Assembly (NCBI GenBank): GCA_030603365.1
Contig: JAUVXV010000005.1
Span: 96,001-160,000 of the forward strand
DNA from: Candidatus Heimdallarchaeota archaeon
GTDB lineage: Archaea > Asgardarchaeota > Heimdallarchaeia > Heimdallarchaeales > Heimdallarchaeaceae
DNA: 64,000 nucleotides
Direction: 5' to 3'
Shown: in pieces, positions 2,624 through 10,398 of the stretch
Layout: each line of letters starts with the position of its first letter
Position numbering within the stretch: the stretch's first letter is position 1
The notes under the pieces: model-generated
Seen by the model: the letters and a program-made list of their open reading frames with translations, nothing else
What the model was told of the DNA's origin: nothing
Database searches by the model: none
Made by a program: the position numbers and the translations under genes

Positions 2624-2989
2624 ATGGATTCCGAAGTAGAGAAACAAGATTATGAGTTGCTCTTACTCCTCAGTACTTTAGGAGCTAATAAAATTCGAGC
2701 AATACTTATCTTGGCACACCTATACCCAAAAGCGATCACTGCCACACAACTATCAACTCTGCTTGGATATTCGATGAAAGCAAGAACAATCTATCGAGGT
2801 ATATTAGATGACCTACAGGAAAGAGAATTAATCTTTCTAGACAAACTCACTCCCAAAGTAGCCAGCATTCGATTAAATCATGAGAACGAGTTACTCAAAA
2901 GACTAATCGAAATGTCTCAGAACCAGGGAGGAGAGTATCAAAAGGTAATCGATGAACTATTGGTGAAAAAAGATGAAGATGAATGGTAA
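2624..2989 (+). CDS. Winged-helix DNA-binding protein
   Basis: KIRAILILAHLYPKAITATQLSTLLGYS...LDDLQERELI wHTH pattern. Confidence 0.65.
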   Translation: MDSEVEKQDYELLLLLSTLGANKIRAILILAHLYPKAITATQLSTLLGYSMKARTIYRGILDDLQERELIFLDKLTPKVASIRLNHENELLKRLIEMSQNQGGEYQKVIDELLVKKDEDEW

Positions 2990-3596
2990 ATACCAATCAC
3001 TGCTTCGAGCAGATAGAAAACCCACTCTAACTGTAAAAAGGGCGTTATTCTATTTAGTATTACTAGTATCTCTAGCCCTGTTTATCTCGTTTTTCACCTC
3101 TTTAAGTTATTCACAAACCTTTGATAGATCTTTTACTGATTTTAACGCTATACCTACTATTCCAACTGATTATGTAGCAGTCTTTACAACAGAACTAATT
3201 AACGAAGGATATAGAGATTTAAACGGTATCATCATCTCTTTACCAACTTGGGGTATTGTAACTCTAATCACCTCAGGTGTAGGATTTGGATCAACTATTC
3301 TGAGTTCAACTCTCTCAAAAACAATGTTATTAGAAAATAAGAAATGGTTGAAAACTTGGACAAAGAAAGGGAAAATAACTTACCACTATTTCTTTAAGAT
3401 GGTGAAAATAGATCTGGGGGAGAATAGAATAAGCATACTTAAGCTGAAGAATAAGTATAGAATTAAGATACAAATTGCAGAGGGTTTAGATCTTTCCAAA
3501 TATGGGTTCTCTTTAAAGAATAACTATTTTGTAGGATATTTTGTAAAAGAGGAACTGTCTAGTACTATTCATTTACTCAGTACTCAACTGCAATAA
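2973..3596 (+). CDS. Hypothetical membrane protein (2 TM)
   Basis: Two hydrophobic segments; overlaps upstream wHTH gene, suggesting translational coupling. Confidence 0.6.
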   Translation: MKMNGKYQSLLRADRKPTLTVKRALFYLVLLVSLALFISFFTSLSYSQTFDRSFTDFNAIPTIPTDYVAVFTTELINEGYRDLNGIIISLPTWGIVTLITSGVGFGSTILSSTLSKTMLLENKKWLKTWTKKGKITYHYFFKMVKIDLGENRISILKLKNKYRIKIQIAEGLDLSKYGFSLKNNYFVGYFVKEELSSTIHLLSTQLQ

Positions 3597-5078: not shown

Positions 5079-5104
5079 TTTTTTGACCTCTTTTTTTTGT
5101 TATT

Positions 5105-5402
5105 GTTGTTTGCGAAGAAACAACCGGAGAGATCAAGAAGGTGGCTTGTACAAGAAATGTAGCCTCCGCAGTTTGCAGTCTAGCGTGCAATATCTTGTAC
5201 AAGACCCTCTCGATATCCCCTTCGAGAGAACCCATTTAGACCTCTAACTTTGTTTCTTCGTGGTTTGACCCCTTGTGTTTGAGTTCGAATTAGCTTCCTT
5301 TGACCTTTCCTAGTGGAAACCTTAATGGGGGGATTAATGACCTAGTTTCCCCCCAGGTTTTCCTTTCTCGCCAAATGAGGAAAGGGGTGGGGTTTCTGGC
5401 GA
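5105..5402 (-). ncRNA. Candidate structured intergenic/leader RNA
   Basis: At least six hairpins; plus-strand A.C mismatches become G.U pairs on minus; G-run and C-run loops. Confidence 0.55.
5145..5204. promoter_or_regulatory. Two CTTGTACAAG palindromes (candidate operators or RNA stem arms)
   Basis: Perfect 10-bp palindrome at 5145-5154 and 5194-5203, 49 bp apart, upstream of the regulator. Confidence 0.4.
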
Positions 5403-5430
5403 TTTTGATTTTTAATTCAGCGTGATCTTA

Positions 5431-5658
5431 TCATCCAGTTGCATACCCATGAGTTCCTATTGGCACATCCTCAACCGGACCTGCTCCTCCAGGACTATAC
5501 CCTATTGGCACATCTTCAACTGGACCTGCTCCTCCAGGACTATACCCTATTGGCACATCTTCAAGAGGTTCAGAAGTTGTAATCATTATTGTTCCTGCAA
5601 CCAAAGCAAGAATTGTTACTAAACAAAATACCCCAAGTACTTTTTGTTTCTTTTTCAT
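5431..5658 (-). CDS. Small secreted/membrane prepropeptide with tandem repeated cores
   Basis: Basic N-terminus + hydrophobic helix, then EDVPIGYSPGGAGPV x2 and EDVPIGTHGYATG; GGTGG SD; CTTAAATA box near 5708-5715; double stop TGA-TAA. Confidence 0.85.
   Translation of the reverse strand: MKKKQKVLGVFCLVTILALVAGTIMITTSEPLEDVPIGYSPGGAGPVEDVPIGYSPGGAGPVEDVPIGTHGYATG
5456..5564. repeat. 45-bp coding tandem repeat, ~2.4 copies
   Basis: Units 5456-5500, 5501-5545, partial 5546-5564; the two full units differ only at synonymous positions. Confidence 0.95.
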
Positions 5659-6334
5659 TTATTTTCCACCAGCTTTATTCGAGCTCAAGTTACCATGTGT
5701 ACTAGTATTATTTAAGAGTTGTTACAATTTTCCATGTTTCTTAAAAAAGTGGAAAAAAGTAACATGACTCATGTCTAAATGCATTACATGAAAGTTTGAC
5801 GGCTCTGTTAAACTATTTTTGTCGGGATATTAAGAAGATATGACCTAATGGTCTATGTAAGGCAAATTCCGTTTTACCTTACAGACGTGAAAATATCTGG
5901 GTATATATGCGGGGAATATTGCTTAGATTATTTTTCTTTTAATAATAAAAAATTGTTGAACAAAGAGTGCATTCTTTTGAGTAATTCTACTGTTAGCTAA
6001 ACAAAATACTAGATAAAATCAACATACTTTCATTTAATGATTAATTAAGTATTGACATAAATGATTAGAGGGCTTGAATCAGTGATTTGTTTTTCTACAA
6101 AAAATCGATGTTTATCTAGAAGAAGAGTTGAGTCGATATCGCATTAAGAATAACTACAAAAAAAATCATATTACACTATTTTCTTCAAATTTGGAATTTT
6201 TTCAGAAGTATTTCTTAGCTGAGAATTTTACTTTAAAAACAACTCTTTTAGTATACAATCTGTCTTACAAAATTTCTCTATTTTAATTTACTACTATCTA
6301 TATACTTCTGTCAAATAGGATGCTAAAAAAGTAG

Positions 6335-6733
6335 TTATTTTTTAATCGCATAAGCAATTTTCAGAAATAATCCACATCCTGTACAAAACTCTGTTTCTTT
6401 TGAATTCACTGTTTCACAATTTGGACAAACAAGTAGTTCTTCTTTTGCAATTCCTTCTACTATTTTCTCTTGTTCAAGATCATCTTTAGGTTCTTCCTTG
6501 TTTTGTGATTTAACAAATTTTCTCATTTTAAAAGCTAGAACAGTAAATACAATTAGCAGGATGGAAGATACAAAAGCTATAAGTATACCAATTATTGACC
6601 AAATTAAACTTAAATGTACTCCAAAAACTATACCTCCGATGGCTACCAAAGGTAATGCGAATACAAATATAGTTAACAACAGTAATCCAAATGTGGTTGA
6701 TTTCTTTTTATTTTCATTCTTCTCCTTATTCAT
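6335..6733 (-). CDS. Membrane protein with C-terminal zinc ribbon
   Basis: 2 TM + CPNC...CTGC. Confidence 0.8.
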   Translation of the reverse strand: MNKEKNENKKKSTTFGLLLLTIFVFALPLVAIGGIVFGVHLSLIWSIIGILIAFVSSILLIVFTVLAFKMRKFVKSQNKEEPKDDLEQEKIVEGIAKEELLVCPNCETVNSKETEFCTGCGLFLKIAYAIKK

Positions 6734-7121
6734 CTATTTTGACCTCTTCCTCAGGTTCTTTTAAGAAGAAACCACATTTTGAGCAATTTTCTTGGTCAGC
6801 TGAATTACGTGTTTTGCATATAAGACAAATTTTCAAATTTAAGGACTGATTACAATAAACACAGTTTTTCCGACTAAGAGGATTTGTTTTATTACATTCA
6901 GGGCAGATCGAGATATCTTTTCTCTTCCTGAAAGAGGATCCAAAAACTAAAATAATGGATGAAAATGCAATTCCTAAAATCCCCCCTATAATGTATCCCC
7001 TATTCATAGTTTGATCTATGACAACTATACCTATATATAGACAGTAGACCGATCCCAGGAATATAATTATTAAACCAATGTTGATAACCTTATTGTTGAC
7101 TAAGAAATTACATCTTTTCAT
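6726..7121 (-). CDS. Membrane protein with double zinc ribbon
   Basis: 2 TM + four CxxC pairs. Confidence 0.8.
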   Translation of the reverse strand: MKRCNFLVNNKVINIGLIIIFLGSVYCLYIGIVVIDQTMNRGYIIGGILGIAFSSIILVFGSSFRKRKDISICPECNKTNPLSRKNCVYCNQSLNLKICLICKTRNSADQENCSKCGFFLKEPEEEVKIDE

Positions 7122-7179
7122 AACAATATTAACATTAGGAAAATGATGATTTAAGTTTTAGCTATGATTTCTAATTCTA

Positions 7180-8400
7180 CTATTTATGCTTAAAGAATTG
7201 CTTTGTGCTTAGTACAGTAAGAGCTAATAGTGATAAAATAAGCAAACTGAAACTGTAATTTATTGTTTTGATTGTTGGTGTTTCAAGATATTCAACTGAT
7301 GGAAAAGGATCATTAGCTTCTGCTGTTCCATCGATAGGATAAGGCATTTCCATATGCCAATCCGACCAATAATTACCTTCTTCTGTCTCTTCATCAAACC
7401 AAATATTTTCTGTTCCATCGTCACAAGCTTGAGAATAACCTCCAAAGTTATTATCTATGAAAGTATTATGGTGGATGATATTAACATCAGAAGCATAATT
7501 GATATAGAGACCATAATCTTGGTTTCTTTCAAATAGATTGTTAGTTAGAACACAATGATCAGCACTATCTAATCTCATACCATTATCATTAAACTCGCAA
7601 GTATTGTTAGCTAAGTTTACTCTAGAGGAGTAAGATAACAATGTTCCAGCAAAGCTATTTTTCGTACAAGTGTTATTTGTTACTGTCGTTCCTGTCGAAT
7701 ATTTTAACCAGATTCCATGCCAATTGTTGTACTTACAAGTGTTGTTTGTAACTGTGCTTCTGGATGAGGAATAAAGAAGAATTCCTGCATTAAAATTATT
7801 ACTACAATTATTACTAGATAATCTATTCTCTGGTGATTCAAAAATAAAGATTCCATGATTAATATTGTTAAAACAATTATTATTTGAAAGTGTTACATTA
7901 GATGAATTGAGTATCTCAATTCCATTAATGTTACTGCTACAGGAATTATTAGCAACTATGGCTCCAGAACATTCTCTTAAACTGATGCCATCAAATTCAC
8001 TGCTCACACAGCTATTATTCATAACTGACACAGTACCCCATGAAATGCAGTCTGAAATCGTGATTCCTACCCTCGATGCTTCTATGTAGCAGTTCAGTAT
8101 AATAAAAAATTTAGAAGTGTTCCAGATTGAAATACCATATTGAGCTGAAGTTACTATCAAGTAATTCTCTATTAGGTACGGATTTTCAGTTGTTCCTAAA
8201 CCTGGAAAACCATAGTTGATGAAACCTTCGTCATTGTCTATTTCTATTGGACCATGAGTTACATAAGAGTCAATTAAAGAATTATGAGTATTATTGAATT
8301 TGCTAACACTAGAATGATCCTCTGAATTGTATACTTCAGAACCAGATATTAAGCAAAAGCTGAATATCAGAACAATCAGAAGTTTTTTCATCTTTTTCAC
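7180..8400 (-). CDS. Right-handed parallel beta-helix (NosD/CASH-like) surface protein
   Basis: Signal peptide, GFPGLGTTENPYLIEN, NN-C-xx-N-xx-GI repeats, GNYWSD, C-terminal TM. Confidence 0.85.
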   Translation of the reverse strand: MKKMKKLLIVLIFSFCLISGSEVYNSEDHSSVSKFNNTHNSLIDSYVTHGPIEIDNDEGFINYGFPGLGTTENPYLIENYLIVTSAQYGISIWNTSKFFIILNCYIEASRVGITISDCISWGTVSVMNNSCVSSEFDGISLRECSGAIVANNSCSSNINGIEILNSSNVTLSNNNCFNNINHGIFIFESPENRLSSNNCSNNFNAGILLYSSSRSTVTNNTCKYNNWHGIWLKYSTGTTVTNNTCTKNSFAGTLLSYSSRVNLANNTCEFNDNGMRLDSADHCVLTNNLFERNQDYGLYINYASDVNIIHHNTFIDNNFGGYSQACDDGTENIWFDEETEEGNYWSDWHMEMPYPIDGTAEANDPFPSVEYLETPTIKTINYSFSLLILSLLALTVLSTKQFFKHK

Positions 8401-8521
8401 TCAAAGAGAATTATCGTTCTAACACTAATAAACGTAATGCAGAATCTTTCATAAATTCAAAATCCCAATTCTCTCTTTTATTTGAAATGTTTAAATATCC
8501 ATTTGTGCAAATATTCAAAGT

Positions 8522-9229
8522 ATGGAGTTGAGATGTTCGTTCTGTGGAGGAGAAGTAAACGAACTTAAACATGTTGATACAATGAAGAAGAAAGCATACT
8601 GTTCTTTTAGATGTACTATTGCTGATAGCATTCCAAGATTGGTTCTTTCTTTATTCTTAACTACTGGACTTGGAGTTATCTTAATTCTTGTCGGAGTTTC
8701 GAACGATTCTTCCAAAAATGTTATTATATTTAGTATTCTATTTGGAATTACAATTTTAGGAATCTTAATCTTCATTATTATAGGTTCAACGCACAATCCG
8801 AATAACCAATTACAAAGTAAAGAAAGAATATCCTTTCAAAAGATTAGATATGAGAAGATGAAGGCAGAAGAAAGTTTTACAAAAGCTCAACTTATTTATC
8901 CAGAATCACCTACAATTTCAAAAATTGCTCAACTTGTTTCTCCTGAAACATCTGCAATCTCAAAAAATACTATCCAATGTTTTTATTGCAAATCTAAGAT
9001 TGATTTCTCTAATTCAGAAGATCAAATAATCTGTATGAGTTGTGGAAATAAAATCCCTTTCTGTGATTTATGTGATGATTACATAGAATCAGAAGCTGAA
9101 ATTCTTCAACTTGAACCCTGTGGTCATATCTTTCATAAAAAAGAACTTCTAGAATGGGTAAAAAGTAATAAAATCTGTTCTAAATGTCAAGTAACTATGA
9201 CTTTTGTAGATGTTAGTCCAGATTTTTAG
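8522..9229 (+). CDS. Membrane-anchored RING-H2-like protein (putative E3 ligase)
   Basis: N-terminal CSFC...CSFRC, 2 TM, Zn ribbon, C-terminal CDLC...CGHIFHKKE...W...CSKC. Confidence 0.75.
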   Translation: MELRCSFCGGEVNELKHVDTMKKKAYCSFRCTIADSIPRLVLSLFLTTGLGVILILVGVSNDSSKNVIIFSILFGITILGILIFIIIGSTHNPNNQLQSKERISFQKIRYEKMKAEESFTKAQLIYPESPTISKIAQLVSPETSAISKNTIQCFYCKSKIDFSNSEDQIICMSCGNKIPFCDLCDDYIESEAEILQLEPCGHIFHKKELLEWVKSNKICSKCQVTMTFVDVSPDF

Positions 9230-10398
9230 AGTTTTCTTTTTCGCTTAATCCAACCTACTAGCATTACAATTGAAATAGCTATTACAAATGATTCAGTAGA
9301 TGCTTCTGTTGGTGATGAATATCCTTCTTCAACTGATTTGATAATGTAATCTATTGTAAGATAAACAAATGGCCAATCAAATTCTGCTAAACTTGACGTA
9401 AACACAACGACCATGTCATAGTCTGGCATTACTTGTATTATCTGTCCAGCCCAACCTAAAGCTAGATATGCATTCATCTGTGGGTAGACCCACCATTGGT
9501 ACCCATACCATGACCAACCACTAACCACCACTGTATTATTTGACGCTTGATCGACCCATTCCTTTGAAACTATCTGAGTTTCATTCCAAGTACCATTATT
9601 TAGAAAGAGAAATCCAAACTTTGCCATATCTCGAGGTAATAGATGAAGATCAGCTCCTCCAAAGTAAATTCCTTGTGGGTCTTGAGACCAGAACACATCG
9701 GTAAAACCTACAGGTTCGAAGATATGCTCATTTGCATACTCAAAAGTGGAATTTCCTGTCGCTTCTTCAATAATTGCAGAAAGCAGATGAGATCCTCCAG
9801 AATTATAGTTAAAAACAGTTCCTGGTTCTTCATCCTTTCCTCTGCTTAAGACAAACTCGACCCAATTATCACTTGCTTTCATCTGTACAAAACTATTTTC
9901 TGGCAAATAGTAAGAAATATCTTCTCTCCAAGAAATACCTGATGTCATGGTTAGTAGATGATAAATAGTAACATTTTCTCTTAATTCAATATTAGGTACT
10001 GAAACATTAACAAAGAAATCCAATATTTTCTGATTTACACTTTCTATAACCCCTTCCTCAATTGTAATACCAATCAAAGTTGAAATAAAACTTTTAGTAA
10101 CTGAATAGACAGGATGAAGAATTCCAGCAGTATAGTAACTGAGATACTCTTCAACCACTAGGTACCCATCCTTAACAATGAGAACACTGTCAATGTTGAA
10201 GTTATTTTCATCAATATACTCAAACATCCTATCTATTGTTTGTTCATTCATTCCTACATCTTCGAAAGAAGCTTTTTGCCACCCATTAGTGGGCCAATAG
10301 TCTCGTTCTATAACATCGCTTAAAACAGGATATGAAATAAATGAAGATAACAATAAAACCACAAACATTATGTAAACAGTAAGTGTTTTGTTTCTCAT
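9226..10398 (-). CDS. Serine hydrolase, beta-lactamase/PBP class C family, surface anchored
   Basis: SVTK, LLTMTSG, FNYNS, YGYQWW, ALGWAGQ motifs; signal peptide and C-terminal TM. Confidence 0.9.
   Translation of the reverse strand: MRNKTLTVYIMFVVLLLSSFISYPVLSDVIERDYWPTNGWQKASFEDVGMNEQTIDRMFEYIDENNFNIDSVLIVKDGYLVVEEYLSYYTAGILHPVYSVTKSFISTLIGITIEEGVIESVNQKILDFFVNVSVPNIELRENVTIYHLLTMTSGISWREDISYYLPENSFVQMKASDNWVEFVLSRGKDEEPGTVFNYNSGGSHLLSAIIEEATGNSTFEYANEHIFEPVGFTDVFWSQDPQGIYFGGADLHLLPRDMAKFGFLFLNNGTWNETQIVSKEWVDQASNNTVVVSGWSWYGYQWWVYPQMNAYLALGWAGQIIQVMPDYDMVVVFTSSLAEFDWPFVYLTIDYIIKSVEEGYSSPTEASTESFVIAISIVMLVGWIKRKRKL

Follow-up and report, generated by a model that had tools for sequence, protein, structure and literature searches.

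The region described here lies within a 64,000-nucleotide stretch of DNA (hereafter, the window; contig C9, 96001-160000) from a Candidatus Heimdallarchaeota archaeon whose 3.65-Mb genome is 89%-complete. It comprises a small gene for a repeat-bearing peptide, a larger, co-oriented gene for a tandem Lrp/AsnC-fold protein, a GC-enriched spacer between the two, and a palindrome and TATA-like box in front of the peptide gene (Table 1). The peptide has a basic start, a hydrophobic stretch of ~20 residues, two full 15-residue units, a truncated third unit and seven unique residues, and the motif within its units is P-V-E-D-x-P-I-G, i.e. acidic and proline-containing, with Gly/Pro linkers between the copies. 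Comparison of genomes establishes, at the level of sequence, that these elements form a fixed module with the order palindrome, TATA box, peptide gene, structured spacer of ~350 nt and tandem Lrp/AsnC-fold gene.

Table 1. Positions of the peptide gene, its parts and the associated elements within the window
Feature	Position	Strand	Remarks
Tandem Lrp/AsnC-fold protein, 446 aa	3738-5078	minus	NirDL-like architecture; co-oriented with and downstream of the peptide gene
Conserved GC-enriched spacer, peptide gene to regulator gene	5079-5430	minus	Invariant blocks; covarying hairpin
Peptide coding sequence, 75 aa	5431-5658	minus	ATG start; TGA stop at 5431-5433; from the ORF list and the sequence
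Third, truncated unit (residues 63-68, ending P-I-G) and 7-residue non-conserved C-terminal tail	5434-5472	minus	
Two full 15-residue (45-bp) units, residues 33-62	5473-5562	minus	Tandem Repeats Finder and codon table
Probable Sec signal peptide, residues 1-23	5590-5658	minus	Basic n-region, 14-residue hydrophobic core, small-residue c-region (A-G-T)
Invariant 10-nt block with Shine-Dalgarno-like GGTGG	5665-5674	minus	7 nt upstream of the ATG; identical in 11 of 11 aligned upstream regions
Conserved TATA-like box, TTAAATAA	5708-5715	minus	~50 nt upstream of the ATG; column block in alignment A3
Inverted repeat, arms 5720-5739 and 5745-5764	5720-5764	not assigned	Directly upstream of the TATA box; 14-20 nt arms

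The peptide gene and its probable export

The translation and span of the open reading frame (ORF) given in an earlier note, written from the letters of the DNA, were correct, and the strand, which that note had left unstated, is the minus strand. Tandem Repeats Finder places the repeat at 5456-5564, with a period of 45 bp, 2.4 copies, 96% matches and a score of 204. Frames on the opposite strand across the repeat are open as well, and were rejected as genes because they have no start codon, ribosome-binding site or protein conservation. Neither the peptide nor its variants have a match in Pfam or NCBIfam, and a second copy was not found in the peptide's own genome. The repeat also breaks short-read assemblies, with several orthologues lying at contig ends and one containing a run of N (loci L005, L007, L010, L036 and L038). 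In the likely source run, a collapsed 75-nt repeat unitig (window positions 5477-5551) has a depth 2.9x that of its flank, and the true array may therefore hold one unit more than the 2.4 that were assembled.

The leader of the peptide is probably a Sec signal peptide, which signal peptidase would cleave after residue 22 or 23, as judged by eye with the -3/-1 rule; in alignment A2, residues 21-23 read A-[S/G]-[T/S/A] in nearly all members. Alternatively, the hydrophobic stretch could be an uncleaved membrane anchor of 22 residues that reaches residue 28. A class III signal, according to the FlaFind rule, has a charged residue at -2 and a Gly or Ala at -1, directly before the hydrophobic stretch. 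Such a prepilin-type signal was rejected because, in every member, the residue ahead of the invariant Gly9 is hydrophobic (L, F or I). Also rejected were a lipobox, as Cys12 is not conserved and lies in an unsuitable context, and sortase, PEP-CTERM and PGF-CTERM signals, there being no C-terminal membrane helix past the motif. The view of the earlier note that this is a genuine exported small protein is supported, with export predicted from the sequence.

Orthologues and anatomy of the family

Of 24 genomes from the same Heimdallarchaeaceae genus, 17 have a syntenic orthologue according to six-frame genome searches, and no clear orthologue was uncovered in six genomes from other Heimdallarchaeaceae genera; elsewhere in the class, the matches were weak and at the level of the signal peptide at most. 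When the single sequence was searched against a clustered collection of 5.8 billion proteins, the window's own protein was the sole match. From 1.84 billion representatives, a profile search retrieved 42 matches, in which the true members are proteins of 76-111 aa and one 40-aa fragment (P0018), and from which the long matches (P0003, P0005, P0008, P0010 and others) were rejected as unrelated low-complexity repeat proteins that do not belong to the family. Since all true homologues are small, they are not N-terminal fragments of longer surface proteins, an outcome that the earlier note had named as one that would count against its reading. Based on these searches, the peptide represents a previously undescribed family of predicted exported repeat micro-proteins that belongs to one Heimdallarchaeaceae genus. 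Two unrelated proteins of other organisms, P0023 and P0033, have a membrane helix and tandem acidic proline repeats, and one of them has a seven-residue string in common with the unit of the relatives. A membrane helix with acidic proline repeats is a recurrent low-complexity architecture, and can mislead profile searches.

The members found in genomes range from 62 to 142 aa and carry 2-7 copies of the motif, such that the variation in copy number and core that the earlier note had proposed to look for in relatives is indeed present. The constant part of the unit consists of G-P, 2-5 residues, D-x-P-[I/L/V] and, usually, G. The 2-6 residues that come after the constant part vary between species and are uniform inside one array. 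In one subgroup, a lysine closes each unit and represents a possible monobasic site; one early-branching subgroup has ~25 additional residues that separate the leader from the repeats. The array of every relative stops just past a motif, with 3-9 non-conserved residues after it. Because of this, what had been described as a last core that diverged in the manner of Phr peptides is better seen as a truncated unit followed by a tail that is different in every species.

Selection on the repeat units

As had been stated for the window, the two full DNA units differ solely at synonymous sites (CCA/CCG and GAA/GAG), and the codon table confirms this. The third, partial unit adds a GGG/GGA difference, so that all three differences between units are synonymous, a result that by itself is weak evidence (~0.02 by chance). 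Much stronger evidence comes from ten orthologous arrays, which show the same pattern, with 37 synonymous vs 6 non-synonymous minimal codon changes (binomial p 3e-16, with 26% of random codon changes expected to be synonymous). Between neighbouring units that are in register, there are 48 synonymous and 4 non-synonymous codon differences. The non-synonymous changes are confined to the linker or to the terminal truncated unit, with none in the D-x-P core of full units, and between species dN/dS is 0.11-0.63 at a dS of 0.17-1.4. Read from these codon changes, purifying selection holds every repeat unit constant, linkers included, and the earlier suggestion that selection acts on the peptide is borne out by the counts from the ten arrays. 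The peptide ORF is a genuine coding gene, for which translation and selection on each unit are strongly supported by the codon pattern, together with the invariant start codon and ribosome-binding block. The sole RNA-library match on the gene is one 75-nt contig, from a relative's repeat, with a depth ratio to its flanks of ~3; since the ratio is the same in a DNA run, this contig is uninformative about expression.

The regulator gene, promoter and spacer

In every genome, a distance of 346-399 nt separates the peptide gene from a co-oriented downstream gene, which encodes a protein of 446-490 aa, and the two genes are present in the same 17 genomes of the genus. As this synteny spans one genus, it does not constitute independent evidence of a functional link. 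The larger protein has an HTH_AsnC-type match in Pfam, and its AlphaFold model (pLDDT 83, pTM 0.82) has NirDL (4ch7) as its best Foldseek match (E 4e-9 over 421 columns), with numerous Lrp/AsnC regulators ranking next. Based on the model, this tandem Lrp/AsnC-fold protein is presumed to be a transcription regulator.

In all orthologues, the peptide gene starts with an ATG that is located 7-10 nt behind the invariant GGTGG block. By analogy with the usual layout of archaeal promoters, the TATA-like box would be a promoter element. The palindrome directly upstream of it (5720-5764) is kept in orthologues and is the sole such palindrome in the 3.65-Mb genome, and it could serve as the operator to which a dimeric or tandem HTH protein binds. 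Between the two genes, the spacer has a GC content of 44-47%, vs ~30-35% in its surroundings (and ~32% in the genome), is single-copy in the genome, and is conserved more strongly than the flanking coding sequence. Across 10 genomes it contains invariant blocks, several of which are 10-20 nt in length, and its predicted hairpin has compensatory changes in 20 of 48 pairs, with G-U pairs on the gene strand. There was no Rfam match in the spacer and its surroundings, and the interval that separates the peptide and regulator genes shows no T-run terminator. From its sequence conservation, the spacer probably forms a structured RNA that belongs to the same transcript and is a leader of the regulator gene. 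In sum, the module looks like one regulated operon, which would consist of an operator, a promoter, the peptide gene, a structured leader and the regulator gene.

The neighbouring genes encode, besides the tandem Lrp-fold protein, zinc-ribbon membrane proteins, a beta-helix protein, a RING-finger protein and an S12 hydrolase. The statement that a tailoring enzyme is absent beside the gene holds for these flanking genes, and among the genomes compared no tailoring enzyme, protease or transporter was found as a constant neighbour. An S12 (beta-lactamase-fold) hydrolase is encoded directly upstream of the peptide gene in some genomes. In the window's own genome, a four-gene insertion separates the peptide gene from the gene for the exported S12 hydrolase (window positions 6335-9229 and 9226-10398), and the four inserted genes encode two zinc-ribbon membrane proteins, a NosD-like beta-helix protein and a RING-finger membrane protein. 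Next to the cassette on contig C6 that is described below, there is a similar beta-helix protein as well. The sole radical SAM gene nearby is 5.3 kb away, and its product is devoid of a SPASM domain and matches generic families below all curated cut-offs. Within the window's interval 2624-3596 on the plus strand, there is a gene for a winged-helix-like 121-aa protein with 80-93% identity across the genus, and it overlaps the gene of a two-helix membrane protein (2973-3596; 207 aa) with 28-59% identity, which is the fastest-evolving gene of the neighbourhood except for that of the peptide. The winged-helix and membrane proteins are a possible sensor pair, and the duo has no paralogue elsewhere in the genome.

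Probable origin from a 152-aa secreted protein

Ahead of each paralogous regulator gene, and of each regulator gene in sister genera, lies the gene of a secreted ~152-aa protein, which belongs to a family that is confined to Heimdallarchaeaceae and annotated solely as hypothetical. An example of the family is K9W45_02030 of Candidatus Heimdallarchaeum aukensis (P0044). Within the window's own genome, copies occur in two-gene cassettes on contigs C6 (50310-52028) and C2 (108112-109852), the loci being L055 and, in relatives, L050-L056. Several such paralogous cassettes, each with a 152-aa gene and a tandem Lrp/AsnC gene, are present per genome, and they are specific to Heimdallarchaeaceae and uniformly annotated as hypothetical. 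The spacers in these cassettes vary from 37 to 347 nt. Similarly laid-out palindromes, with arms of 14-18 nt that are 15-16 nt apart, are located upstream of some of the 152-aa genes (L054 and L056).

The AlphaFold model of the 152-aa protein (pLDDT 89) is an Ig-like beta-sandwich of seven or eight strands, for which Foldseek returned generic beta-sandwich matches, none at E <= 0.001. The protein contains a calcium-type D-x-D-x-D-G loop. Its C-terminal tail is invariant, reads F-D-P-P-G, a few residues, D-x-P and then G-G, and packs on the folded domain in the model (pLDDT 83-88). In a BLASTP comparison (E 8e-4), the tail of the H. aukensis protein shares 11 of 16 positions with one peptide variant across its junction and first unit, and 10 of 13 positions with the units that come next; identity of the tail motif to the repeat unit of some peptide variants reaches 77%. 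When compared by hhalign, the final 45 positions of the 152-aa family align with the peptide subgroup that has extra residues (E 1.6e-4, probability 50%), and the ~25 extra residues of that subgroup may be the last strand of the 152-aa domain. When every ORF of the genome was scanned for the motif, the peptide and one 152-aa protein were recovered and nothing else; a third, more diverged cassette was identified upstream of another regulator paralogue. In a maximum-likelihood tree of the regulators, those linked to the peptide form one clade (100/100) that is nested among those linked to 152-aa proteins. The variants that are closest to the parent tail branch first in this tree, and the window's own variant is further from the parent tail than are the variants of early-branching species.

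Because the 152-aa proteins, which are encoded at the corresponding place beside paralogous regulators, have the motif in their tail, the peptide probably arose by loss of the domain and amplification of the tail. Accordingly, with moderate support, the peptide is taken to be a probable descendant of the 152-aa secreted Ig-like protein, with domain loss and tail amplification at the base of the genus. Yet the tail homology rests on a match of 12-16 residues; of two hidden Markov models (HMMs), one built from the parent tail and one from the 14-residue unit, neither picked up the other family at a level exceeding noise in a set of 25,425 genome ORFs, and a whole-peptide profile aligned with the 152-aa family in the signal region only. 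For these reasons, the derivation is probable and not proven.

Function of the array

The best explanation overall, put forward at even confidence, is that the peptide is an exported array of an acidic proline motif, in which the motif is a selected recognition element and which is controlled by a regulator, derived from a tail and not tailored by enzymes. As read from its sequence, the peptide would be exported by Sec and probably freed by signal peptidase. Each repeat unit would then serve as the recognition element for an extracellular partner, the array supplying several identical copies of it. The adjacent regulator would control expression via the palindrome, and the product would not be an enzyme-tailored natural product. 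The constraint on whole units, together with linkers that are specific to the species yet uniform within the array, is the pattern expected of a ligand that co-evolves with its receptor, and this pattern is compatible with either released single peptides or an intact, multivalent array. That the ancestral motif is a single tail modelled as packed on a domain suggests binding rather than excision. An array that acts intact as a multivalent ligand is slightly favoured over one that is cut into single peptides.

The main rival, which appears rather unlikely, holds that the gene encodes a multi-core prepropeptide, with the array cut into identical, diffusible and species-specific signals of ~15 residues and with the regulator closing an autoinduction loop, either directly or via a membrane sensor. 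Its appeal is that the copies are kept identical even at the linkers, as in the precursors of pheromones and neuropeptides, that the linker residues vary between species and not inside an array, and that the copy number varies. A promoter with a dedicated palindrome and a co-transcribed regulator, the lysine that ends each unit in one subgroup as a possible monobasic site, and the Phr family as the nearest language-model cluster (score 0.86, a lead and nothing further) point the same way. However, the mature region of the window's peptide is devoid of basic residues and of any other known cleavage site, and the module has no conserved protease or peptide transporter, the S12-type hydrolase being adjacent in some genomes only. 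Further, the ancestral single tail is modelled as packed on a folded domain (pLDDT 83-88), and the regulator has the Lrp/AsnC fold, which is not a known peptide-receptor fold. The more elaborate scenario of an Asgard peptide-pheromone or kin-recognition system appears improbable; it would have the array cut to peptides of ~15 residues that are sensed by the regulator or by the membrane/winged-helix pair, feedback on the palindromic promoter, and invention of the whole within one genus by domain loss and tail multiplication. Even less credence is due to the idea that the units are the cores of a ribosomally made precursor (RiPP), modified by a tailoring enzyme and then released, which is hardly likely at all. 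The layout with multiple cores, having conserved flanks and a short variable stretch, does recall cyanobactin precursors, and a radical SAM gene lies 5.3 kb away. But its product, besides being without SPASM, has generic and sub-threshold family matches, and no maturase, RRE protein, protease or exporter is adjacent in any of the genomes compared. The units also contain no Cys and have no conserved Ser, Thr, Lys or Tyr, and the leader is a probable secretion signal and not a recognition leader. The earlier note had likewise disfavoured a RiPP, and the lack of a maturase nearby makes this the right call.

There are two further readings. On the first, the ORF is a cis-acting leader whose Pro/Gly/Asp-rich nascent chain stalls ribosomes and sets expression of the regulator through the structured spacer, following the logic of SecM, MifM and VemP. 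Such a role is suggested by an export signal and a Pro/Gly/acidic sequence located upstream of conserved, structured RNA that runs into the regulator gene, by the fact that no T-run terminator is visible between the two genes, and by a gene order that is as in known arrest peptides, but it is judged very unlikely, given that the stop codon is ~350 nt from the start of the regulator, that 2-7 copies and changing linkers are unexpected for a tuned arrest sequence, that the homologous slot beside paralogous regulators is occupied by a folded 152-aa secreted protein (with spacers of 37-347 nt), and that the regulated gene is not an export factor. Only marginally better in its prospects, and still quite improbable, is a generic acidic proline-rich surface spacer, or a decaying remnant of a truncated 152-aa gene, that has no specific recognition. 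Unrelated membrane proteins (P0023 and P0033) do have similar acidic proline repeats behind a membrane helix, and the C-terminal tail beyond the last motif is not conserved. Against this stand the strong purifying selection on every unit and on the linkers as well, a constraint that is not predicted by a spacer role, and the retention across the genus of the start codon, ribosome-binding site, promoter and operator while synonymous sites are near saturation.

Significance

Peptide-based signalling between cells is well known in bacteria and eukaryotes. To our knowledge, there is no characterized case of it in archaea, and within the literature on Asgard archaea no peptide-based cell-cell signalling was found. 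With a short motif, a dedicated operator and a cognate regulator, the family is a concrete and testable candidate for signalling in the lineage that is closest to eukaryotes. The signalling interpretation is attractive as a hypothesis, and the unusual evolutionary origin of the peptide is reasonably well supported. Whatever its function, the gene is a clean example of the probable birth of a micro-protein gene, in which a folded secreted protein would have lost its domain and a tail of 12-16 residues would have been amplified and then held constant, one unit at a time, by selection. Additionally, the family illustrates that short-read metagenome assemblies miss or break small repeat genes, and the clustered protein collection had the window's copy only.

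Comparison with known systems

Among the systems with which the peptide may be compared are the repeat proteins that are processed by Kex2, including fungal alpha-factor-type pheromone precursors and UstA, which have a secretion signal (probable in the Heimdall peptide) and, likewise, near-identical tandem units and a copy number and unit sequence that vary between species (PMC7329392). The ustiloxin-type precursors have dibasic Kex2 sites between their repeats, a core Tyr, and DUF3328 oxidase genes nearby (PMC7329392). In contrast, residues 24-75 of the Heimdall peptide contain no Lys or Arg, and the relatives have at most one basic residue per unit. The Heimdall units also have no conserved Tyr, whereas Tyr is mandatory for cyclization of the ustiloxin type; DUF3328 was not found in Pfam scans of the neighbours of the peptide gene; and, as an archaeal protein, the peptide has no ER or Golgi processing route. 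The relatives read D-E-P-I-G, the valine of the window's peptide being the exception. The resemblance to the ED-YAIG repeats of ustiloxin precursors to which the earlier note had drawn attention is therefore coincidental, there being no tailoring enzyme, Kex2-type site or tyrosine.

Like the cyanobactin precursor PatE, the Heimdall peptide has repeated cassettes with conserved flanks around a short variable stretch; however, there are no PatA/PatG-type proteases or other biosynthetic genes near its gene, its N-terminus is a probable secretion signal and not a recognition leader, and its variable stretch is just 2-6 residues in length. The arrest peptides SecM, MifM and VemP are also small ORFs that have an export signal and lie upstream of structured RNA and a regulated gene. 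They differ from the Heimdall case in that the copy number of the latter varies, the distance from its stop codon to the next start is ~350 nt, and the downstream gene encodes a regulator and not an export factor. The Phr peptides of the Bacillus Rap-Phr (RRNPP) systems are similar to the Heimdall peptide in being small, in having a Sec signal (probable in the latter) and a short exported part, in being encoded beside a cytoplasmic regulator, and in occurring in paralogous cassettes. Yet the Heimdall partner has an Lrp/AsnC fold rather than being a TPR receptor, the peptide gene is upstream of its regulator whereas Phr genes are downstream, and there are several identical units in place of one C-terminal pentapeptide.

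The 152-aa family of the Heimdallarchaeaceae themselves has in common with the peptide a position upstream of and co-oriented with a tandem Lrp/AsnC-fold gene, a probable Sec-type signal and, probably, the tail motif (P-P-G-G .. D-x-P .. G-G). Its members have a globular domain and a single tail motif, whereas the window's protein has no such domain and three copies of the motif. As the beta-sandwich and the D-x-D-x-D-G loop are present in the 152-aa parents and absent from the 75-aa protein, the latter is best regarded as a probable derivative of the 152-aa family and not as a full member of it.
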